64,000 nucleotides of DNA from Escherichia coli. GTDB taxonomy: Bacteria; Pseudomonadota; Gammaproteobacteria; Enterobacterales; Enterobacteriaceae. Shown here one piece after another: positions 1-8,180 of this stretch. A model generated the notes under the pieces. It saw only the letters and a program-made list of their open reading frames with translations, was not told the origin of the DNA and searched no databases. Within the stretch, counting starts at the first letter, position 1; each line of letters begins with the position of its first letter. The stretch is from the NCBI RefSeq assembly GCF_030013595.1, contig NZ_CP122768.1; one strand, 5' to 3'. Made by a program: the position numbers and the translations under genes.

Positions 1-453
1 GAAGATGTGGCGGTCCGCTTTCCGGTTGCAAAAGAACTGGGTGCGACGGCTGTAGTAAATGGTTCTACCGAAGATGTGGTGGCGCGCTGCCAGCAAATTT
101 GTGGCAAAGACAATCTGGGACTGGTGATTGAATGCTCCGGTGCCAATATCGCATTGAAACAAGCCATCGAAATGCTCCGCCCGAACGGGGAAGTGGTACG
201 CGTTGGAATGGGCTTCAAACCTCTTGATTTCTCGATTAATGACATTACCGCCTGGAACAAAAGCATCATTGGGCATATGGCCTATGACTCCACCTCATGG
301 CGTAACGCTCTCCGGCTATTAGCCAGCGGCGCTATCAAAGTCAAACCGATGATCACGCATCGTATCGGCCTGTCGCAATGGCGCGAAGGGTTTGATGCGA
401 TGGTCGATAAAACCGCAATCAAAGTGATCATGACTTACGACTTTGATGAATAA
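1..453 (+). CDS. ydjL: Zn-dependent alcohol dehydrogenase family protein, C-terminal part (5' end outside window)
   Basis: Open frame from base 1 to TAA at 451-453; translation resembles the C-terminal Rossmann/cofactor domain of MDR dehydrogenases; synteny upstream of ydjK. Confidence 0.8.
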   Translation, partial: EDVAVRFPVAKELGATAVVNGSTEDVVARCQQICGKDNLGLVIECSGANIALKQAIEMLRPNGEVVRVGMGFKPLDFSINDITAWNKSIIGHMAYDSTSWRNALRLLASGAIKVKPMITHRIGLSQWREGFDAMVDKTAIKVIMTYDFDE

Positions 454-479
454 CTACTCTCCTGAAGGAACGTTATCGC

Positions 480-1859
480 ATGGAACAGATAACAAAACCG
501 CATTGTGGTGCACGGCTGGATCGCTTACCGGATTGCCGCTGGCATTCGTCAATGTTTGCTATCGTCGCGTTTGGCTTGCTTGTCTGCTGGAGTAATGCCG
601 TTGGTGGCTTGATCCTCGCGCAGCTGAAAGAGTTGGGCTGGACAGATAATTCCACCACTGCCACATTCTCAGCAATCACGACCGCCGGAATGTTTCTCGG
701 TGCGCTGGTTGGCGGCATCATCGGTGACAAAACCGGTCGCAGAAATGCGTTCATCCTCTATGAGGCCATTCATATTGCCTCGATGGTGGTCGGTGCTTTT
801 TCACCGAATATGGATTTCCTTATTGCCTGCCGTTTTGTGATGGGCGTTGGGCTGGGAGCTTTACTGGTGACGCTGTTTGCTGGTTTCACCGAATATATGC
901 CCGGTAGAAATCGCGGAACGTGGTCCAGTCGGGTTTCTTTTATTGGCAACTGGTCATATCCGCTCTGTTCATTGATTGCGATGGGACTCACGCCGCTGAT
1001 TAGTGCAGAGTGGAACTGGCGAGTACAACTGCTTATCCCTGCAATATTGTCGCTTATCGCTACGGCGCTGGCCTGGCGCTACTTTCCTGAATCCCCGCGC
1101 TGGCTGGAATCGCGCGGACGGTATCAGGAAGCCGAGAAAGTCATGCGGAGTATAGAAGAAGGCGTCATACGCCAGACGGGAAAACCTTTGCCGCCCGTGG
1201 TTATTGCTGATGACGGTAAAGCGCCACAAGCGGTGCCGTATTCAGCCTTACTGACAGGAGTATTACTGAAACGCGTGATATTAGGTTCTTGTGTGCTGAT
1301 TGCCATGAACGTTGTGCAGTACACACTAATTAACTGGTTGCCAACGATATTCATGACCCAGGGGATTAATTTAAAAGACTCGATTGTTTTAAATACCATG
1401 AGTATGTTTGGCGCGCCATTTGGTATTTTTATTGCCATGCTGGTGATGGATAAAATTCCGCGTAAAACAATGGGTGTGGGGCTATTAATCCTGATTGCGG
1501 TGCTCGGATATATCTATTCACTGCAAACCAGTATGTTGCTCATAACGCTGATTGGTTTCTTCCTGATTACTTTCGTCTATATGTACGTTTGCTATGCCTC
1601 GGCAGTGTATGTCCCTGAGATCTGGCCGACAGAAGCCAAATTACGTGGCTCCGGTCTGGCGAATGCAGTAGGGCGAATCAGTGGTATTGCCGCACCTTAT
1701 GCCGTTGCAGTGCTGCTCAGTAGTTATGGCGTAACGGGAGTCTTTATTCTTCTGGGGGCGGTTTCAATTATTGTCGCAATTGCTATCGCCACCATTGGAA
1801 TTGAAACCAAAGGTGTCTCCGTTGAAAGTTTAAGTATTGATGCAGTAGTCAATAAATAA
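480..1859 (+). CDS. ydjK: MFS transporter (sugar porter-like)
   Basis: 459-aa ORF, multi-TM hydrophobic profile, MFS motifs (GxxxDKxGRR); synteny. Confidence 0.85.
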   Translation: MEQITKPHCGARLDRLPDCRWHSSMFAIVAFGLLVCWSNAVGGLILAQLKELGWTDNSTTATFSAITTAGMFLGALVGGIIGDKTGRRNAFILYEAIHIASMVVGAFSPNMDFLIACRFVMGVGLGALLVTLFAGFTEYMPGRNRGTWSSRVSFIGNWSYPLCSLIAMGLTPLISAEWNWRVQLLIPAILSLIATALAWRYFPESPRWLESRGRYQEAEKVMRSIEEGVIRQTGKPLPPVVIADDGKAPQAVPYSALLTGVLLKRVILGSCVLIAMNVVQYTLINWLPTIFMTQGINLKDSIVLNTMSMFGAPFGIFIAMLVMDKIPRKTMGVGLLILIAVLGYIYSLQTSMLLITLIGFFLITFVYMYVCYASAVYVPEIWPTEAKLRGSGLANAVGRISGIAAPYAVAVLLSSYGVTGVFILLGAVSIIVAIAIATIGIETKGVSVESLSIDAVVNK

Positions 1860-1875
1860 TACTGGTGGATTCAAA

Positions 1876-2919
1876 ATGAAAAATTCAAAAGCAATATTGC
1901 AGGTGCCGGGCACAATGAAAATTATTTCAGCAGAAATACCTGTGCCTAAAGAAGATGAAGTTTTGATTAAAGTGGAATATGTCGGTATTTGTGGTTCAGA
2001 TGTACATGGTTTCGAATCAGGCCCGTTTATTCCGCCTAAAGACCCAAATCAAGAAATTGGCCTGGGTCATGAATGCGCCGGGACGGTTGTGGCTGTGGGA
2101 AGCCGTGTGCGCAAATTTAAAGCGGGGGATCGGGTAAATATCGAACCTGGCGTTCCTTGCGGTCACTGTCGTTACTGTCTGGAAGGCAAATATAACATCT
2201 GCCCGGACGTTGATTTTATGGCGACACAACCTAACTACCGCGGCGCATTAACGCACTATCTGTGTCATCCGGAGAGCTTTACTTACAAACTGCCCGACAA
2301 TATGGACACGATGGAAGGGGCGCTGGTGGAGCCTGCCGCAGTCGGGATGCATGCAGCGATGCTGGCAGATGTTAAACCGGGTAAGAAGATAATTATTCTG
2401 GGAGCGGGTTGTATTGGTTTGATGACGTTGCAAGCGTGCAAATGCCTGGGAGCTACGGATATTGCCGTCATTGATGTACTGGAAAAACGTCTGACAATGG
2501 CGGAACAGCTCGGCGCGACAGTGGTTATTAACGGCGCAAAAGAAGACACTATTGCACGCTGTCAGCAATTTACCGAAGAAATGGGCGCAGATATTGTTTT
2601 CGAAACAGCGGGTTCTGCGGTCACCGTTAAACAGGCACCTTATCTGGTAATGCGCGGCGGTAAAATTATGATTGTTGGTACTGTACCGGGCGATTCGGCA
2701 ATCAATTTCCTCAAAATCAATCGCGAAGTCACTATCCAGACAGTATTCCGCTATGCCAATCGTTATCCGGTCACGATTGAAGCTATTTCCACAGGGCGAT
2801 TCGATGTGAAATCGATGGTGACACATATTTACGATTATCAGGATGTACAACAGGCATTTGAAGAGTCGGTTAACAACAAACGCGACATTATTAAAGGCGT
2901 TATTAAAATTAGCGATTAA
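1876..2919 (+). CDS. ydjJ: Zn-dependent sugar-alcohol dehydrogenase (MDR family)
   Basis: 347-aa ORF with GHECAG zinc motif and GxGxxG NAD fold; synteny. Confidence 0.85.
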   Translation: MKNSKAILQVPGTMKIISAEIPVPKEDEVLIKVEYVGICGSDVHGFESGPFIPPKDPNQEIGLGHECAGTVVAVGSRVRKFKAGDRVNIEPGVPCGHCRYCLEGKYNICPDVDFMATQPNYRGALTHYLCHPESFTYKLPDNMDTMEGALVEPAAVGMHAAMLADVKPGKKIIILGAGCIGLMTLQACKCLGATDIAVIDVLEKRLTMAEQLGATVVINGAKEDTIARCQQFTEEMGADIVFETAGSAVTVKQAPYLVMRGGKIMIVGTVPGDSAINFLKINREVTIQTVFRYANRYPVTIEAISTGRFDVKSMVTHIYDYQDVQQAFEESVNNKRDIIKGVIKISD

Positions 2920-2939
2920 TTAATACGGGAGAACAGAAT

Positions 2940-3776
2940 ATGCTCGCAGATATCAGATATTGGGAAAACGATGCCACAAATAAACATTATGCAATTGCCC
3001 ATTTTAACGTATGGAATGCAGAAATGTTGATGGGCGTTATCGACGCAGCCGAAGAAGCGAAATCACCGGTTATTATTTCTTTTGGTACAGGTTTTGTCGG
3101 GAACACCTCATTTGAAGATTTCTCTCACATGATGGTATCAATGGCAAAAAAAGCAACGGTGCCGGTAATAACTCATTGGGATCATGGTCGGAGTATGGAA
3201 ATTATTCATAACGCCTGGACTCATGGTATGAATTCATTAATGCGTGATGCTTCCGCATTTGATTTCGAAGAAAATATTCGTTTAACCAAAGAGGCTGTTG
3301 ATTTCTTCCATCCGCTGGGTATTCCGGTAGAGGCAGAATTAGGGCATGTCGGTAATGAAACCGTTTATGAAGAAGCGCTGGCGGCCTATCACTATACCGA
3401 TCCTGACCAGGCGGCTGAATTTGTTGAACGTACGGGCTGTGACTCATTGGCTGTCGCCATCGGCAACCAGCATGGGGTTTATACGTCAGAGCCACAATTG
3501 AATTTTGAGGTCGTCAAACGCGTACGCGATGCCGTTTCTGTTCCGCTGGTTTTGCACGGCGCATCGGGGATCAGTGATACCGACATTAAAACTGCAATTT
3601 CGTTGGGTATCGCGAAAATCAACATTCATACGGAGCTCTGTCAGGCCGCAATGGTAGCAGTGAAAGAAAACCAGGATCAGCCTTTCCTGCATTTAGAACG
3701 TGAAGTACGTAAAGCTGTAAAAGAACGGGCATTGGAAAAAATTAAACTGTTCGGTTCTGATGGCAAAGCGGAATAA
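2940..3776 (+). CDS. ydjI: class II (metal-dependent) ketose-bisphosphate aldolase family protein
   Basis: 278-aa ORF resembling class II FBP/tagatose-BP aldolases; synteny. Confidence 0.85.
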   Translation: MLADIRYWENDATNKHYAIAHFNVWNAEMLMGVIDAAEEAKSPVIISFGTGFVGNTSFEDFSHMMVSMAKKATVPVITHWDHGRSMEIIHNAWTHGMNSLMRDASAFDFEENIRLTKEAVDFFHPLGIPVEAELGHVGNETVYEEALAAYHYTDPDQAAEFVERTGCDSLAVAIGNQHGVYTSEPQLNFEVVKRVRDAVSVPLVLHGASGISDTDIKTAISLGIAKINIHTELCQAAMVAVKENQDQPFLHLEREVRKAVKERALEKIKLFGSDGKAE

Positions 3777-3780
3777 TGAT

Positions 3781-4728
3781 ATGGATAATCTCGACGTTAT
3801 TTGTATAGGTGCCGCTATTGTTGATATTCCATTGCAACCGGTCAGTAAAAATATCTTTGATGTGGATTCTTATCCTCTTGAAAGAATCGCAATGACCACC
3901 GGGGGTGATGCAATAAATGAAGCAACAATTATTTCTCGTCTGGGCCATCGCACAGCATTAATGAGTCGTGTTGGTAAAGATGCCGCCGGGCAATTTATTC
4001 TCGACCATTGCCGCAAAGAGAATATTGATATTCAAAGCCTGAAGCAGGACGTCAGCATAGATACCTCAATTAACGTTGGACTGGTGACGGAGGATGGCGA
4101 GCGGACGTTTGTCACAAACCGTAACGGCAGTCTGTGGAAATTGAATATTGACGATGTTGATTTTCCGCGGTTTTCTCAGGCGAAATTATTATCTCTGGCC
4201 AGTATTTTCAACAGTCCTCTATTGGATGGTAAAGCGCTAACAGAAATTTTTACGCAAGCTAAAGCCCGGCAGATGATTATCTGTGCCGATATGATCAAAC
4301 CGCGGTTGAATGAAACGCTGGATGATATTTGCGAAGCATTGAGTTATGTCGATTATCTGTTTCCTAATTTTGCCGAGGCAAAATTACTCACCGGGAAAGA
4401 GACACTGGATGAAATTGCTGACTGCTTTCTTGCGTGCGGCGTAAAAACGGTGGTGATTAAAACGGGTAAAGACGGCTGCTTTATCAAGCGTGGTAACATG
4501 ACGATGAAGGTGCCGGCGGTCGCAGGAATAACCGCCATCGACACTATTGGCGCAGGCGATAACTTTGCTTCTGGCTTTATAGCGGCTCTGTTAGAAGGCA
4601 AAAATCTGCGTGAATGCGCACGCTTTGCCAATGCAACGGCGGCTATCTCGGTTCTAAGCGTCGGTGCCACCACCGGTGTAAAAAACAGAAAGCTGGTCGA
4701 ACAATTGCTGGAAGAATACGAAGGATAA
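3781..4728 (+). CDS. ydjH: PfkB/ribokinase-family sugar kinase
   Basis: ORF 3760-4728; internal ATG at 3781 gives the 315-aa length recalled for K-12; GAGD motif near C-terminus. Confidence 0.85.
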   Translation: MDNLDVICIGAAIVDIPLQPVSKNIFDVDSYPLERIAMTTGGDAINEATIISRLGHRTALMSRVGKDAAGQFILDHCRKENIDIQSLKQDVSIDTSINVGLVTEDGERTFVTNRNGSLWKLNIDDVDFPRFSQAKLLSLASIFNSPLLDGKALTEIFTQAKARQMIICADMIKPRLNETLDDICEALSYVDYLFPNFAEAKLLTGKETLDEIADCFLACGVKTVVIKTGKDGCFIKRGNMTMKVPAVAGITAIDTIGAGDNFASGFIAALLEGKNLRECARFANATAAISVLSVGATTGVKNRKLVEQLLEEYEG

Positions 4729-4737
4729 TGAAGGCAA

Positions 4738-5718
4738 ATGAAAAAGATACCTTTAGGCACAACGGATATAACGCTTTCGCGAATGGGGTTGGGGACATGG
4801 GCCATTGGCGGCGGTCCAGCATGGAATGGCGATCTCGATCGGCAAATATGTATTGATACGATTCTTGAAGCCCATCGTTGCGGCATTAACCTGATTGATA
4901 CTGCGCCAGGATATAACTTTGGCAATAGTGAGGTTATCGTCGGTGAGGCGTTAAAAAAACTGCCCCGTGAACAGGTTGTAGTAGAAACCAAATGCGGCAT
5001 TGTCTGGGAACGAAAAGGGAGTTTATTCAACAAAGTTGGCGATCGGCAGTTGTATAAAAACCTTTCCCCGGAATCTATCCGCGAAGAGGTAGAAGCCAGC
5101 TTGCAACGTCTGGGTATTGATTACATCGATATCTACATGACGCACTGGCAGTCGGTGCCGCCATTTTTTACGCCGATAGCTGAAACTGTCGCAGTGCTCA
5201 ATGAGTTAAAGGCCGAAGGGAAAATTCGCGCTATAGGCGCTGCTAACGTCGATGCTGACCATATCCGCGAGTATCTGCAATATGGTGAACTGGATATTAT
5301 TCAGGCGAAATACAGTATCCTCGACCGGGCATTGGAAAGCGAACTGCTGCCGCTATGTCGTGATAATGGCATTGTGGTACAGGTTTATTCCCCGCTAGAG
5401 CAGGGATTGTTGACCGGTACCATCACTCGTGATTACGTTCCGGGCGGCGCTCGGGCAAATAAAGTCTGGTTCCAGCGTGAAAACATGCTGAAAGTGATTG
5501 ATATGCTTGAACAGTGGCAGCCACTCTGTGCTCGTTATCAGTGCACAATTCCCACTCTGGCACTGGCGTGGATATTAAAACAGAGTGATTTAATCTCCAT
5601 TCTTAGTGGGGCTACTGCACCGGAACAGGTACGTGAAAATGTCGCGGCATTGAATATCAACTTATCGGATGCAGACGCAACATTGATGAGGGAAATGGCA
5701 GAGGCCCTGGAGCGTTAA
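4738..5718 (+). CDS. ydjG: aldo-keto reductase
   Basis: 326-aa ORF with AKR-like sequence; synteny. Confidence 0.85.
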   Translation: MKKIPLGTTDITLSRMGLGTWAIGGGPAWNGDLDRQICIDTILEAHRCGINLIDTAPGYNFGNSEVIVGEALKKLPREQVVVETKCGIVWERKGSLFNKVGDRQLYKNLSPESIREEVEASLQRLGIDYIDIYMTHWQSVPPFFTPIAETVAVLNELKAEGKIRAIGAANVDADHIREYLQYGELDIIQAKYSILDRALESELLPLCRDNGIVVQVYSPLEQGLLTGTITRDYVPGGARANKVWFQRENMLKVIDMLEQWQPLCARYQCTIPTLALAWILKQSDLISILSGATAPEQVRENVAALNINLSDADATLMREMAEALER

Positions 5719-5854
5719 ATACTCAACACGATTCACCTCTGTTTCTGTGAAAACTGTGATGAAAATCTGTGATTCAAACAGGTTATTTTGAAAGTAAACA
5801 TCGGTTATGCGATAATCGCGCTAATGTGATGTAAAAAGATACAGGGGTGTAATC

Positions 5855-6613
5855 GTGGCGGCAAAAGACAGGATTCAGGCAATTAAGCAAATGGTTGCCA
5901 ACGATAAAAAGGTGACAGTCTCAAATTTGAGTGGGATTTTTCAGGTAACCGAAGAAACCATTCGCCGCGATCTTGAGAAGCTGGAAGATGAAGGCTTTTT
6001 GACCAGAACCTATGGTGGTGCTGTTTTAAATACAGCGATGTTGACGGAGAATATCCATTTTTATAAGCGCGCTTCATCGTTTTATGAAGAGAAGCAGCTT
6101 ATTGCACGCAAGGCACTACCCTTTATCGACAATAAAACCACCATGGCAGCCGATTCCAGTAGTACCGTAATGGAATTGCTCAAATTGTTACAGGACCGTA
6201 GTGACCTGACGTTGCTAACCAACTCGGCGGAAGCGATTCATGTTCTGGCTCAGTCAGAAATTAAAGTCGTTTCAACGGGTGGGGAACTAAACAAAAATAC
6301 ACTTTCCCTGCAAGGAAGAATTACTAAAGAGATCATCAGCCGCTACCATGTCGATATCATGGTAATGAGTTGTAAAGGTCTAGATATTAACAGCGGCGCG
6401 CTGGACTCTAACGAAGCGGAAGCTGAAATCAAAAAGACAATGATCCGTCAGGCGACAGAAGTTGCGTTATTGGTTGATCACTCTAAGTTTGATCGCAAAG
6501 CTTTTGTCCAGTTAGCTGACTTTAGTCATATTAATTACATAATAACTGATAAATCACCGGGTGCAGAGTGGATAGCATTTTGCAAAGACAATAATATCCA
6601 GCTGGTGTGGTAA
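5855..6613 (+). CDS. ydjF: DeoR-family transcriptional regulator
   Basis: 252-aa ORF, GTG start at 5855, N-terminal HTH and DeoR C-terminal sugar-phosphate-binding domain. Confidence 0.85.
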   Translation: MAAKDRIQAIKQMVANDKKVTVSNLSGIFQVTEETIRRDLEKLEDEGFLTRTYGGAVLNTAMLTENIHFYKRASSFYEEKQLIARKALPFIDNKTTMAADSSSTVMELLKLLQDRSDLTLLTNSAEAIHVLAQSEIKVVSTGGELNKNTLSLQGRITKEIISRYHVDIMVMSCKGLDINSGALDSNEAEAEIKKTMIRQATEVALLVDHSKFDRKAFVQLADFSHINYIITDKSPGAEWIAFCKDNNIQLVW

Positions 6614-6729
6614 TTTAAGCACACGTTGTCAATATTATTTGTTCCTGCGCCTGGAAATAAAATGATGATAAAGATGCGGCAAGTGAATTTGCCGCAATTG
6701 CTACCTTTTTAGCAAATCCGAGGCACCTA

Positions 6730-8088
6730 ATGGAACAATATGATCAAATTGGCGCAAGACTGGACCGCTTGCCTTTGGCCCGGTTTCATTATCGTATATT
6801 TGGTATTATAAGCTTTAGTCTGTTATTAACGGGTTTTTTGAGTTATTCAGGCAATGTTGTTTTAGCAAAGCTGGTAAGCAATGGATGGTCAAATAATTTC
6901 CTCAATGCCGCCTTTACCTCGGCATTAATGTTTGGTTATTTCATCGGCTCTCTTACCGGTGGGTTCATCGGTGATTATTTTGGGCGGCGCAGGGCTTTTC
7001 GCATAAATCTTCTCATCGTCGGTATTGCGGCAACAGGGGCCGCTTTTGTCCCTGATATGTACTGGCTCATCTTCTTTCGCTTCCTGATGGGCACAGGAAT
7101 GGGGGCGCTGATTATGGTTGGCTATGCTTCGTTTACGGAGTTTATCCCCGCGACGGTGCGTGGAAAATGGTCCGCGCGGCTCTCATTTGTCGGTAACTGG
7201 TCGCCCATGTTGTCTGCGGCGATAGGCGTGGTGGTTATCGCTTTTTTTAGTTGGCGGATAATGTTTCTGCTGGGTGGTATTGGCATACTGTTAGCCTGGT
7301 TTCTCTCAGGTAAATACTTTATTGAGTCGCCTCGATGGTTGGCGGGGAAAGGACAAATCGCAGGTGCAGAAAGCCAACTTCGTGAAGTAGAGCAGCAAAT
7401 TGAAAGAGAGAAGAGTGTTCGTTTACCCCCGCTTACTTTGAATCAGAGCAACAGCAAGGCTAACATAATCAATGGTACTTTCTGGCTGCTGTTTAAAGGG
7501 GAAATGTTACGACGTACATTAGTCGCGATTACTGTTTTAATTGCAATGAACATTTCACTTTATACCATCACCGTATGGATACCGACCATATTTGTTAACT
7601 CCGGCATTGATGTCGATAAATCAATATTAATGACTGCTGTTATTATGATTGGCGCTCCGGTAGGAATATTTATTGCGGCATTAATTATTGATCATTTTCC
7701 TCGTCGATTATTTGGCTCCGCCTTACTTATTATTATTGCCGTGTTAGGCTATATCTATTCAATTCAGACTACAGAGTGGGCGATTTTAATCTATGGCCTG
7801 GTGATGATCTTCTTTTTATACATGTATGTTTGCTTCGCGTCGGCGGTTTATATCCCGGAGCTTTGGCCAACGCATTTACGCCTGCGCGGTTCAGGTTTCG
7901 TTAATGCCGTCGGACGGATCGTCGCGGTCTTCACGCCTTATGGCGTTGCGGCACTATTAACGCATTATGGGTCAATTACGGTGTTTATAGTGCTTGGCGT
8001 GATGTTAGTGCTCTGTGCGCTGGTTCTCTCCATTTTTGGCATCGAAACGCGGAAGGTGTCATTGGAAGAGATTTCTGAGGTGAATTAA
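6730..8088 (+). CDS. ydjE: MFS transporter, paralog of ydjK
   Basis: 452-aa ORF sharing N-terminal and motif similarity with the ydjK product (LDRLP...GxxxDxxGRR). Confidence 0.85.
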   Translation: MEQYDQIGARLDRLPLARFHYRIFGIISFSLLLTGFLSYSGNVVLAKLVSNGWSNNFLNAAFTSALMFGYFIGSLTGGFIGDYFGRRRAFRINLLIVGIAATGAAFVPDMYWLIFFRFLMGTGMGALIMVGYASFTEFIPATVRGKWSARLSFVGNWSPMLSAAIGVVVIAFFSWRIMFLLGGIGILLAWFLSGKYFIESPRWLAGKGQIAGAESQLREVEQQIEREKSVRLPPLTLNQSNSKANIINGTFWLLFKGEMLRRTLVAITVLIAMNISLYTITVWIPTIFVNSGIDVDKSILMTAVIMIGAPVGIFIAALIIDHFPRRLFGSALLIIIAVLGYIYSIQTTEWAILIYGLVMIFFLYMYVCFASAVYIPELWPTHLRLRGSGFVNAVGRIVAVFTPYGVAALLTHYGSITVFIVLGVMLVLCALVLSIFGIETRKVSLEEISEVN

Positions 8089-8140
8089 ATCTTTCGTTGA
8101 TGGCGTCAATTGCCAGATGTACCACTGACGTGTTTTATCT

Positions 8141-8171
8141 GGCCTACAATGGCAGTACAGAATTGTAGGCC
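8141..8171. terminator. inverted repeat (GGCCTACAAT ... ATTGTAGGCC) between convergent ydjE and pncA; candidate bidirectional terminator or REP-like unit
   Basis: 10-bp perfect inverted repeat read directly at 8141-8150 and 8162-8171. Confidence 0.4.
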
Positions 8172-8180
8172 AGCATAAAA

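Follow-up and report, generated by a model that had tools for sequence, protein, structure and literature searches.

The first 8,088 nt of the 64,000-nt stretch of Escherichia coli DNA analysed here (the window) carry the known ydjLKJIHG-ydjF-ydjE cluster of this species, a partly characterised locus whose detection is real but ordinary. With a probability of roughly 0.7, we interpret it as a horizontally shared, self-contained cassette that breaks down an acidic sugar, probably C7-C9, present in animal guts. The first-pass annotation of this DNA is partly supported by our analysis, being mostly right but dated. Its view that no physiological substrate has been firmly established agrees with the literature searched, in which no paper gives the cluster a physiological substrate or assigns a role to YdjL, YdjJ, YdjK, YdjE or YdjF, and in which the functions of the operon's enzymes were described as "only partially determined" as of 2022 (PMC9602453). 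The label "orphan" no longer applies in full, because the kinase and the aldolase were screened in vitro in 2019, a check that the annotation had itself proposed, and PDB structures exist for YdjI, YdjH and YdjJ.

Gene content and chromosomal position

The open reading frame calls, which agree with how E. coli records are annotated in RefSeq, place the 3' end of ydjL and the complete ydjK, ydjJ, ydjI, ydjH, ydjG, ydjF and ydjE on the plus strand at positions 1-8088 (Table 1). The start of ydjL lies 624 nt ahead of the window, which therefore covers just the final 150 codons of the gene; the ydjL promoter and the 5' two-thirds of the gene (the first 208 codons) lie outside. The chromosomal order is yeaC-ydjLKJIHGFE-pncA-ansA-sppA, the cluster thus being located between yeaC and pncA as in strain K-12. 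Position, the eight genes and their order are all shared with K-12, which identifies the genes as orthologues of b1769-b1776. Compared with the cluster of K-12 MG1655 (b1776-b1769), nucleotide identity is 97.9% over positions 1-8088, gene order and gene lengths are identical, and the differences are allelic only.

Pfam profiles back every family to which the eight co-oriented genes had been assigned, and the architecture proposed for them (uptake, redox, phosphorylation and aldol cleavage under DeoR control) is compatible with all of our findings. The gaps between successive genes from ydjL to ydjE are 26, 16, 20, 4, 9, 136 and 116 nt. The tight spacing that had also been noted is therefore true of ydjL to ydjG only (4-26 nt), whereas ydjF and ydjE are set off by the two long gaps.

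Table 1. Features of the ydj cluster and its right edge (coordinates of the 64-kb window)
Feature	Position	Strand	Basis
ydjL, 3' part (last 453 nt/150 codons), Zn-dependent medium-chain dehydrogenase	1..453	+	Pfam ADH_zinc_N 84.7 bits; RefSeq
ydjK, MFS transporter, 459 aa	480..1859	+	Pfam MFS_1/Sugar_tr
ydjJ, Zn-dependent dehydrogenase, polyol/sorbitol-dehydrogenase branch, 347 aa	1876..2919	+	Pfam ADH_N + ADH_zinc_N
ydjI, class II (Zn) DHAP-dependent aldolase, 278 aa	2940..3776	+	Pfam PF01116; PDB 6OFU
ydjH, PfkB-family sugar kinase, 315 aa	3781..4728	+	Pfam PfkB 248.8 bits; PDB 3H49/3IN1
ydjG, NADH-dependent aldo-keto reductase, 326 aa	4738..5718	+	Pfam Aldo_ket_red 223.9 bits; NF049922
Two direct TCTGTG repeats 22 nt apart (5744-5749, 5766-5771), predicted YdjF autoregulation sites	5744..5771	+	Conservation
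Putative sigma-70-like ydjF promoter (TTGAAA, 17 nt, GATAAT, upstream TG)	5788..5816	+	Consensus match only
ydjF, DeoR/GlpR-family transcription regulator, 252 aa, GTG start	5855..6613	+	Pfam HTH_DeoR + DeoRC
GC-rich hairpin TGCGGCAAGTGAATTTGCCGCA between ydjF and ydjE, possible ydjF terminator	6675..6696	.	Terminator scan, - strand
ydjE, second MFS transporter, 452 aa	6730..8088	+	Pfam MFS_1/Sugar_tr
REP-like palindromic element 3' of ydjE, right edge of the 9.1-kb polymorphism	8117..8173	.	Alignment to cluster-less genome

Distribution and conservation

Among 5,426 complete genomes of E. coli, 79.9% have the cluster and 1,091 lack it as a clean indel, which makes it a presence/absence polymorphism of 9.1 kb. 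In a cluster-less genome (L004), homology restarts with 81% identity at the REP-like element (14117-14173 of record L001, corresponding to window positions 8117-8173). Strain KTa005 has an IS1-mediated deletion in the cluster, and O157:H7-lineage records have an IS3 insertion in it and contain one MFS gene without the ydjE name. The cluster is thus dispensable in E. coli, being absent from 20% of genomes and IS-disrupted in some lineages. These losses would also fit a cluster that is cryptic and decaying in E. coli, left over from a horizontally acquired cassette and without present physiological role, as would the nonsense mutation at ydjL codon 119 (TGG to TAG; outside the window) in the two RefSeq records closest to the window, the GC content of the cluster (46.1% versus 50.2% in the remaining window) and the lack of a known growth substrate. 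We consider such a remnant unlikely, however, because none of the seven complete genes in the window is disrupted and each is as long as in K-12, 80% of genomes retain the cluster at 97-100% nucleotide identity, its promoter is turned on specifically in the mouse gut (PMC6561318), and its proteins are strongly conserved across phyla.

The gene order L-(K)-J-I-H-G-(F) is kept, with varying transporters, in 82 loci from Pseudomonadota, Bacillota, Actinomycetota, Synergistota and Fusobacteriota. The same order in five phyla indicates that the cluster is more than a chance assembly and argues for functional coupling of its genes. YdjI in these loci is 73-98% identical to that of E. coli. Gene-by-gene comparison of three loci gave 58-89% identity for the other cassette proteins, with YdjL the most conserved (84-89%). 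The hosts are mostly gut bacteria.

Aldolase and kinase

YdjI matches profile PF01116 with 298.9 bits over profile positions 8-277 of 277 and PDB entry 6OFU ("YdjI aldolase") with an E-value of 5e-186. The residues DH 81-82, H179 and H207, read by eye in WDHG, NQHG and LHGASG, are those that we take, by AgaY numbering, to be the zinc ligands. The full-length profile match and the metal-site residues identify YdjI as a class II metal-dependent ketose-phosphate aldolase, and PMC11194214 describes two zinc positions in 6OFU. Among NCBIfam models, YdjI passes only the broad subfamily TIGR00167 and no fructose- or tagatose-1,6-bisphosphate aldolase equivalog (246.5 against a cut-off of 343 for TIGR01859; 226.6 against 443.6 for TIGR01858). 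YdjH is a member of the PfkB/ribokinase family, with 248.8 bits to PF00294, GAGD at 257-260 and GG at 41-42; its PDB entries, 3H49 and 3IN1, are titled "uncharacterized sugar kinase ydjH".

The two enzymes were screened in vitro in 2019 in work on the K-12 cluster by Huddleston, Raushel, Holden and co-workers (Huddleston & Raushel, Biochemistry 58:3354; Huddleston et al., Biochemistry 58:3340). According to two further papers, both prefer C7-C9 2-keto sugars ending in a carboxylate (PMC9602453, PMC11194214); YdjH favours long-chain monosaccharides with a carboxylate terminus (PMC9602453), and YdjI converts octuluronate-1-phosphate to DHAP and L-arabinuronate (PMC11194214, PMC9602453). The top in vitro substrate, L-glycero-L-galacto-octuluronate, has no known natural source (PMC9602453), and the best YdjI substrate is said to have "no natural abundance" (PMC9602453). 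The "sugar or polyol" substrate of the first-pass annotation needs qualifying in this respect, since the favoured compounds are sugars, but acidic higher-carbon ones and not a plain sugar or polyol. The primary papers of 2019 reportedly found that YdjH phosphorylates the C1 hydroxyl, that catalytic efficiencies are modest (10^3-10^4 M-1 s-1) and that hexose and hexitol phosphates perform poorly in comparison with acidic higher sugars. Such modest efficiencies, if as reported, and a top substrate without known natural occurrence suggest that the true substrate may differ.

Dehydrogenases and transporters

Catalytic motifs are intact in YdjL, YdjJ and YdjH, and those of YdjG and YdjI were checked by eye. 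YdjL and YdjJ each contain the catalytic zinc ligands, the structural-zinc Cys4 loop and the GxGxxG motif of Zn-dependent medium-chain dehydrogenases: CG 39-40, GHE at 60 (His61), loop C92-C106 and GTGPLG at 182 in YdjL (full protein of record L001, as the N-terminal motifs fall outside the window), and CG 39-40, GHE at 64, loop C95-C109 and GAGCIG at 176 in YdjJ. The cluster had been described as built from paralogous pairs; this suits the two transporters better than the dehydrogenases, which are only 27% identical to each other and each have their own orthologue, 54-98% identical, in distant phyla. Because YdjJ scores 254 bits to a ketose reductase and only 125 bits to YdjL, their pairing was overstated. 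YdjJ is nearer to animal sorbitol dehydrogenases than to YdjL, and judged by sequence the two fall into separate branches of the Zn-dehydrogenase superfamily. In a PDB search, YdjJ corresponded to 5VM2, followed by a ketose reductase and sorbitol dehydrogenases, and the solved proteins nearest to YdjL were L-threonine 3-dehydrogenases. YdjL remains far below the cut-offs for that enzyme (217 bits versus 380 for NF003808; 202 versus 458 for TIGR00692), and the L-idonate 5-dehydrogenase model, with a cut-off of 469, gives 175 bits for YdjJ and 117 bits for YdjL.

YdjK and YdjE, 44% identical over their full length, appear from this comparison to be a genuine but old paralogous pair, and among NCBIfam models both come nearest, though below cut-off, to the aromatic acid/H+ symporter family. 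YdjK is present in most other-phylum cassettes (50-78% identity), and ydjE is confined to cassettes of Enterobacterales and Agarivorans; elsewhere, its slot is occupied by an SDF-family (sodium:dicarboxylate symporter) transporter or an ABC transporter of the branched-chain-amino-acid type. Both the nearest relatives of YdjK and YdjE and these occupants of the second slot point to an anionic substrate. The sugar-type ABC systems (SBP_bac_1) in some Lachnospiraceae cassettes do not specifically point to one.

Comparison with known pathways

The cluster resembles the gat, aga and kba systems in its class II aldolase (YdjI scores 171 bits to AgaY, 1GVF, and 171 bits to KbaY), its Zn medium-chain dehydrogenase (YdjJ, 139 bits to GatD, 4A2C) and its DeoR-family repressor, the counterpart of GatR and AgaR (YdjF, 153 bits to the AgaR model). 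Unlike them, it lacks both PTS uptake and a partner subunit for the aldolase (GatZ/KbaZ), uses a PfkB kinase with no second kinase for a bisphosphate, reaches no equivalog cut-off and prefers C7-C9 uronate-type ketoses in vitro. A conventional hexitol or ketohexose route of the gat, aga or sorbitol-like type, leading from polyol to ketose to phosphate and ending at a tagatose/fructose-bisphosphate-type aldolase, would explain the RefSeq name of YdjI ("ketose-bisphosphate aldolase") and its subfamily match, the affinity of YdjJ to ketose reductase and sorbitol dehydrogenases, and the extra ribulose-phosphate-3-epimerase-family gene, typical of ketose-phosphate pathways, in approximately 30 other-phylum cassettes. 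It is nevertheless as improbable, in our judgement, as the decaying remnant: besides the differences in aldolase score, PTS and second kinase, the published screening data favour C7-C9 sugars with a negatively charged terminus, and the transporters are akin to organic-anion families.

In the L-galactonate (LgoD/YjjN) and L-idonate (IdnD) routes, Zn-dehydrogenases oxidise an aldonate to a keto-uronate or keto-aldonate, which sets a precedent for the presumed first ydj step, where a polyhydroxy acid would likewise be the substrate of a medium-chain dehydrogenase. These routes differ from ydj in proceeding through isomerase, dehydratase and KDG steps and not through a 1-kinase and a DHAP aldolase.

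YdjG is the only cluster member that passes a specific NCBIfam model, the equivalog NF049922 "NADH-dependent methylglyoxal reductase YdjG" (627.4 bits; cut-off 550). This name denotes an in vitro activity and not a proven physiological role, and methylglyoxal reduction is a frequent side activity among aldo-keto reductases, which counts against reading the locus as a detoxification system. The idea of an aldehyde/methylglyoxal detoxification and stress module, with YdjG reducing methylglyoxal, the dehydrogenases acting on other reactive carbonyls and the transporters exporting the products, could also draw on gut methylglyoxal, discussed as a possible trigger, and the higher osmotolerance upon ydjK overexpression (PMC6561318) and on the over-representation of ydj genes in lactic-acid-resistant E. 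coli (PMC9602453), but it is the least probable of the alternatives, since it needs neither a PfkB kinase nor a DHAP-dependent aldolase, both of which are always linked to the oxidoreductases in five phyla and have defined sugar-acid specificities in vitro.

For the catabolism of an acidic sugar, we propose the following steps, inferring the roles of YdjL, YdjJ, YdjG, YdjK and YdjE from family membership only. An organic-anion substrate would be imported by YdjK and/or YdjE and converted by YdjL and YdjJ, possibly with YdjG, into a 2-ketose with a terminal carboxylate, the sorbitol-dehydrogenase-like YdjJ probably oxidising the hydroxyl adjoining the terminal CH2OH. YdjH would then phosphorylate the 2-ketose, and the zinc aldolase YdjI would cleave the ketose-1-phosphate to DHAP and a shorter aldehydo-acid, in line with the in vitro activities reported in the literature (octuluronate-1-phosphate for YdjI). 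The aldehyde may finally be reduced or oxidised by YdjG or a dehydrogenase and enter known sugar-acid routes.

Regulation

YdjF consists of a DeoR helix-turn-helix domain (PF08220, 62.6 bits) and a DeoRC sensor domain (PF00455, 167.8 bits), reaches no NCBIfam equivalog cut-off and is encoded after ydjG in most other-phylum cassettes. It is listed as an uncharacterised DeoR regulator (PMC4797297), and no experimental study on it was found in the literature searched. For ydjL, CRP activation (PMC8085971) and Rho-dependent attenuation/termination in the leader (bioRxiv 10.1101/2020.07.18.207399) have been described. The ydjL promoter is also one of the two most consistent triggers induced in the healthy mouse gut (PMC6561318), which, together with gut bacteria as the main hosts, argues for the relevance of the cassette in this habitat.

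Upstream of ydjF, the block ACCTCTGTTTCTGTG...AAATCTGTGATTCA is kept in Citrobacter, Klebsiella and Budvicia, and Symbiopectobacterium and Agarivorans retain only ACCTCTGTTT and the second TCTGTG. The block has its core in common with the AAACACAGA motif that precedes ydjL orthologues; TCTGTG/CACAGA occurs only 17 times in the 64-kb window. In the 263-nt regions ahead of ydjL orthologues, AACACAGA was found at a mean of 0.65 per region, compared with 0.02 in the background, with occurrences in Pseudomonadota, Bacillota and Actinomycetota. An exact match to the operator motif is absent from approximately half of the F-containing loci, and many loci are close kin, which leaves these counts non-independent. 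The conserved AAACACAGA motif is thus a candidate YdjF operator. YdjF is predicted to repress the ydjL and ydjF promoters via AAACACAGA/TCTGTG half-sites and may be released by a phosphorylated intermediate, by analogy with other DeoR-family regulators, for which sugar phosphates are typical effectors. The function of the hairpin downstream of ydjF is uncertain because the plus-strand T-run is set apart from the stem. The ydjF promoter candidate matches the consensus at 10 of 12 positions and is the best in the 9.5-kb region scanned (L001 11788-11816).

Gene content and integrity of the ydj cluster

The ydjLKJIHG-ydjF-ydjE cluster (window 1-8088) is a real and correctly described feature, yet it is an already-known and partly characterised locus. 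Because the locus, its protein families and the open status of its substrate are already documented, nothing in it is new as a finding of the scan. The first 10,000 bases of the window differ at three positions (3/10,000) from the RefSeq record NZ_CM149870.1, which derives from a pig isolate, and belong to an E. coli chromosome. The cluster itself is 97.9% identical to that of K-12 MG1655. From ydjL to ydjG, the genes are separated by 26, 16, 20, 4 and 9 nt, and gaps of 136 and 116 nt precede ydjF and ydjE. The seven complete genes are unbroken and of K-12 length, and each of the protein families named in the first-pass annotation is backed by Pfam. The Zn ligands and GxGxxG motif of both YdjL and YdjJ and the GAGD motif of YdjH were detected by regular-expression checks, and the DH/His/His site of YdjI and the aldo-keto reductase tetrad of YdjG were recognised in the sequences by eye. 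The description of a co-oriented cluster of intact complete genes from these families is thus borne out.

Features of the ydj cluster and its flanks. L001 is a locus that spans the cluster and includes the DNA upstream of the window (L001 14117-14173 = window 8117-8173); other positions are those of the window.
Feature	Position	Strand	Remarks
Inverted repeat GTAAAACGCAGAT-catt-ATCTGTGTTTTAC	L001 5268-5297		upstream of ydjL, outside the window; overlaps a promoter-like site
ydjL (last 453 nt only)	1-453	+	Zn-dehydrogenase; gene start 624 nt before the window
ydjK	480-1859	+	MFS transporter
ydjJ	1876-2919	+	Zn-dehydrogenase
ydjI	2940-3776	+	class II aldolase
ydjH	3781-4728	+	PfkB kinase
ydjG	4738-5718	+	aldo-keto reductase
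Two TCTGTG repeats, 22 nt apart	5744-5749 and 5766-5771		just upstream of the ydjF sigma-70-like site
Sigma-70-like site TTGAAA-17-GATAAT	5788-5816		best of the region
ydjF	5855-6613	+	DeoR regulator
ydjE	6730-8088	+	MFS transporter
REP-like palindrome GGCCTACA...TGTAGGCC	8117-8173		downstream of ydjE; right boundary of the 9.1-kb indel
pncA, ansA, sppA		opposite strand	next after ydjE

In the two nearest RefSeq records (pig isolates HCP5S3_I2 and LCP30S3_I5), codon 119 of ydjL, which lies outside the window (L001 5731-5733), is changed from TGG to TAG, and the gene is annotated there as a pseudogene. It is unbroken in strains C4, SW4848 and K-12.

The proposal that the cluster is built from paralogous pairs is only half borne out. 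The transporters YdjK and YdjE are 44% identical over their full length; the dehydrogenases YdjL and YdjJ share just 27% identity and fall on separate branches of the Zn-dehydrogenase superfamily. YdjJ corresponds to the crystal structure 5VM2, and its next nearest relatives are a ketose reductase (254 bits) and sorbitol dehydrogenases (225 bits). The nearest relatives of YdjL are L-threonine 3-dehydrogenases, with YdjJ ranking merely sixth (125 bits). Separate YdjL and YdjJ orthologues are present in nearly all related cassettes of other phyla. Because each has its own orthologues across phyla, the two are probably distinct and anciently separate enzymes rather than a duplicated pair.

Presence and absence of the cluster within E. 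coli

The cluster was found in 4,335 of 5,426 complete genomes (79.9%), at least 80% of it being covered in 4,242 of the 4,335 carriers, and was wholly absent from the other 1,091. With a chimeric query in which msrB-yeaC was joined to pncA-ansA, the yeaC-side and pncA-side flanks adjoined in approximately 1,092 genomes. At the empty site inspected in one of these genomes, approximately 88 unrelated bases separate the stop codon of yeaC from a REP-like element that is also found downstream of ydjE; this palindrome, with 81% identity, is the sole sequence common to the cluster region and the empty site. From the adjoining flanks and the REP-like element in the empty site, it follows that the whole unit, including the promoter region (L001 5006-14116, 9.1 kb), is a clean presence/absence polymorphism. 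The GC content of the cluster is 46.1%, versus 50.2% elsewhere in the window. Other lesions involve IS elements: an IS1-associated deletion in strain KTa005 takes out ydjL through most of ydjE, and records of the O157:H7 lineage (H64-H66) carry an IS3-family insertion inside the cluster, one MFS gene there being no longer named ydjE.

The cassette in other bacteria

YdjI homologues with at least 79% identity are very numerous in public data. From look-ups of genomic context and a single scan across species-representative genomes, we collected 82 loci, almost all of which keep the gene order L-(K)-J-I-H-G-(F). The hosts among the Enterobacterales are Escherichia, Citrobacter, the Klebsiella oxytoca group, Raoultella, Yokenella, Budvicia, Symbiopectobacterium and Enterobacillus. 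Further hosts are Gilliamella and Agarivorans; many Lachnospiraceae, other Clostridia, Veillonella, Megamonas, Anaerococcus and Erysipelotrichaceae; and Atopobiaceae (Actinomycetota), one Synergistaceae genome and Sebaldella termitidis (Fusobacteriota). Phylum membership was checked for Sebaldella, Parafannyhessea (Atopobiaceae) and the Synergistaceae genome, and the other hosts are presumed to belong to the phyla to which we assign them. The sole clear break of the conserved order that we saw is in Gilliamella from the bee gut (L083 and L084), where K-L-I-F and G-H-J are divergent blocks on opposite strands.

In a gene-by-gene comparison with Sebaldella, Agarivorans and one Lachnospiraceae locus, the identity to the E. 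coli proteins was 58-89%, YdjL ranking highest (84-89%); the cassette proteins are under strong constraint. The GC content of the cassette tracks that of the host, and the transfers were therefore not very recent.

The constant core consists of the five enzymes, and the transporters differ between loci. YdjE occupies the slot after ydjF in the Enterobacterales and Agarivorans only. The same slot holds a sodium:dicarboxylate-symporter-family protein in 29 loci and a branched-chain-amino-acid-type ABC system in approximately 12 loci and in Caproiciproducens, and a sugar-type ABC system replaces YdjK in some Lachnospiraceae. This carrier mix suits organic anions better than neutral sugars, in line with the carboxylate preference observed in vitro and with the weak NCBIfam matches of YdjK and YdjE to aromatic-acid/H+ symporters. 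In addition, a gene of the ribulose-phosphate-3-epimerase family (approximately 230 aa) is present in 30 loci (L049 and 29 others; L093 6447-7127), in most cases with the ydjL orthologue on one side and that of ydjK on the other. Its carriers are cassettes of Bacillota and Actinomycetota. The E. coli cluster lacks the gene, and a ketose-phosphate epimerisation step may there be supplied from elsewhere or may not be needed. Aminotransferase, RraA-like, PxpB-like and LysR genes adjoin the cassette in six to seven Clostridia loci; they vary in side and strand, look like a separate neighbouring cluster and were therefore not used as cassette partners.

Candidate regulatory sequences

The palindrome in the ydjL promoter is GTAAAACGCAGATCATTATCTGTGTTTTAC. 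Copies of its half-site, AAACACAGA, often two or three of them, also lie upstream of the ydjL orthologues of Pseudomonadota, Bacillota and Actinomycetota. The sequence AACACAGA occurs 0.65 times per 263-nt region upstream of these orthologues versus 0.02 times in surrounding DNA, counts that include many mutually related loci and approximately half of loci with no exact match. Citrobacter, Klebsiella and Budvicia keep the TCTGTG block upstream of ydjF, and Symbiopectobacterium and Agarivorans keep part of it, namely the second repeat; the hexamer has only 17 occurrences in the 64-kb window. On this sequence evidence, we predict that the inverted repeat with its half-sites and the TCTGTG repeats are candidate YdjF operators for the operon and for ydjF itself. 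In a scan of the region, promoter-like sites were no commoner than in shuffled sequences, and terminator-like sites were only about two SD above them.

Activation of ydjLKJIHG by CRP has been predicted (PMC8085971). When the TTGTGATCTGAGTTGTA stretch upstream of ydjL was inspected by eye for a CRP site, the left half-site alone fitted the consensus. Rho-dependent termination has been reported in the ydjL leader or ORF (bioRxiv 10.1101/2020.07.18.207399), and the ydjL promoter, silent in culture, was among the two triggers switched on most consistently in the healthy mouse gut (PMC6561318).

Pathway and substrate

The in vitro screen of the kinase and aldolase that the first-pass annotation had proposed was already carried out in work published in 2019. 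This work is that of Huddleston and Raushel (2019, Biochemistry 58:3354) on YdjH and Huddleston et al. (2019, Biochemistry 58:3340) on YdjI. Structures have been deposited for YdjI (PDB 6OFU), YdjH (3H49 and 3IN1) and YdjJ (5VM2). As summarised in two later papers, YdjH and YdjI favour long-chain monosaccharides that end in a carboxylate, and the top YdjI substrate is L-glycero-L-galacto-octuluronate(-1-phosphate), which is formed from DHAP and L-arabinuronate and has no known natural abundance (PMC9602453, PMC11194214). The functions of the operon are described there as 'only partially determined'. YdjG is the sole cluster protein that passes a specific NCBIfam model, that of an NADH-dependent methylglyoxal reductase. 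The one model passed by YdjI is that of the broad 'ketose-bisphosphate aldolase' subfamily, and nothing specific was passed by YdjL, YdjK, YdjJ, YdjH, YdjF or YdjE. A published list places YdjF with the uncharacterised DeoR regulators (PMC4797297). The literature searched yielded no substrate assignment after 2019 and no study of YdjF. The statement that the physiological substrate is not firmly established therefore still holds for that literature, which gives no definitive substrate and pathway for the full set of members.

The best-supported model is a catabolic route for an acidic higher-carbon sugar. YdjK and/or YdjE would import the sugar, and YdjL, YdjJ and perhaps YdjG, judging from their families, would tailor its redox state to give a 2-ketose with a terminal carboxylate. 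YdjH, whose activity is reported in vitro, would phosphorylate the ketose, reportedly at C1, and YdjI, which catalyses such a cleavage in vitro, would split the product into DHAP and a shorter aldehydo-acid, to be handled by an oxidoreductase, plausibly the aldehyde-reducing YdjG. DeoR-family regulators typically sense sugar phosphates; by analogy, YdjF may repress the operon until a phosphorylated intermediate builds up. An ordinary hexitol/tagatose-type pathway or an aldehyde-detoxification module is less consistent with the data, and so is a decaying cryptic remnant: these three readings fit more poorly with the invariant linkage of kinase, aldolase and oxidoreductases, with the specificities published for YdjH and YdjI, with the intact genes and with the gut-specific induction.

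As to which acidic sugar is used, a conjecture of our own, to which we give a low probability, is that the natural substrates are 3-deoxy-2-ulosonic acids such as Kdo or KDN-type nonulosonic acids, with attack starting at the end distal to the carboxylate. Kdo is a C8 sugar of lipopolysaccharide and plant rhamnogalacturonan II. A dehydrogenase would oxidise the penultimate hydroxyl (C7 of Kdo), YdjH would phosphorylate the terminal CH2OH, YdjI would free DHAP and a 2-keto-3-deoxy aldehydo-acid, and YdjG would reduce the aldehyde to a 2-keto-3-deoxy-aldonate. In Fischer projections drawn by the nomenclature rules, Kdo read from C8 is left-right-right (D-fructose-like) at C3'-C5', as in L-glycero-L-galacto-octuluronate, and KDN read from C9 is left-right-right-left at C3'-C6', matching that compound at four centres. 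This stereochemical match supports the idea, which would explain the chain-length preference and carboxylate terminus, the need for three oxidoreductases, and both the gut induction and the host range, which takes in gut bacteria and degraders of plant polymers. The screens of 2019 may have excluded it already.

The ydj cluster belongs to those multi-gene catabolic operons of E. coli K-12 that still lack a known physiological substrate. Naming this substrate would close a gap in the metabolic map of a model organism and reveal a nutrient contested by many gut bacteria. Practical handles are the five-phylum cassette with its swapped transporters, the accessory epimerase-family gene, the candidate YdjF operator and the promoter induced in the mouse gut.

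Other features of the window

The gdhA gene (window 15780-17123, - strand) is an intact ORF of 447 aa; according to its annotation, it is frameshifted in the otherwise near-identical NZ_CM149870.1, so that either the window comes from a different assembly or the record has errors. Window 39001-64000 matches complete E. coli genomes at approximately 98% identity at best, in four to six pieces, and parts of it have multiple matches per genome and matches to plasmids (IS-like repeats). The genes annotated under these matches include katE, chb/cel genes, tcyP, thrS, pheT and the type III effector gene espL1.
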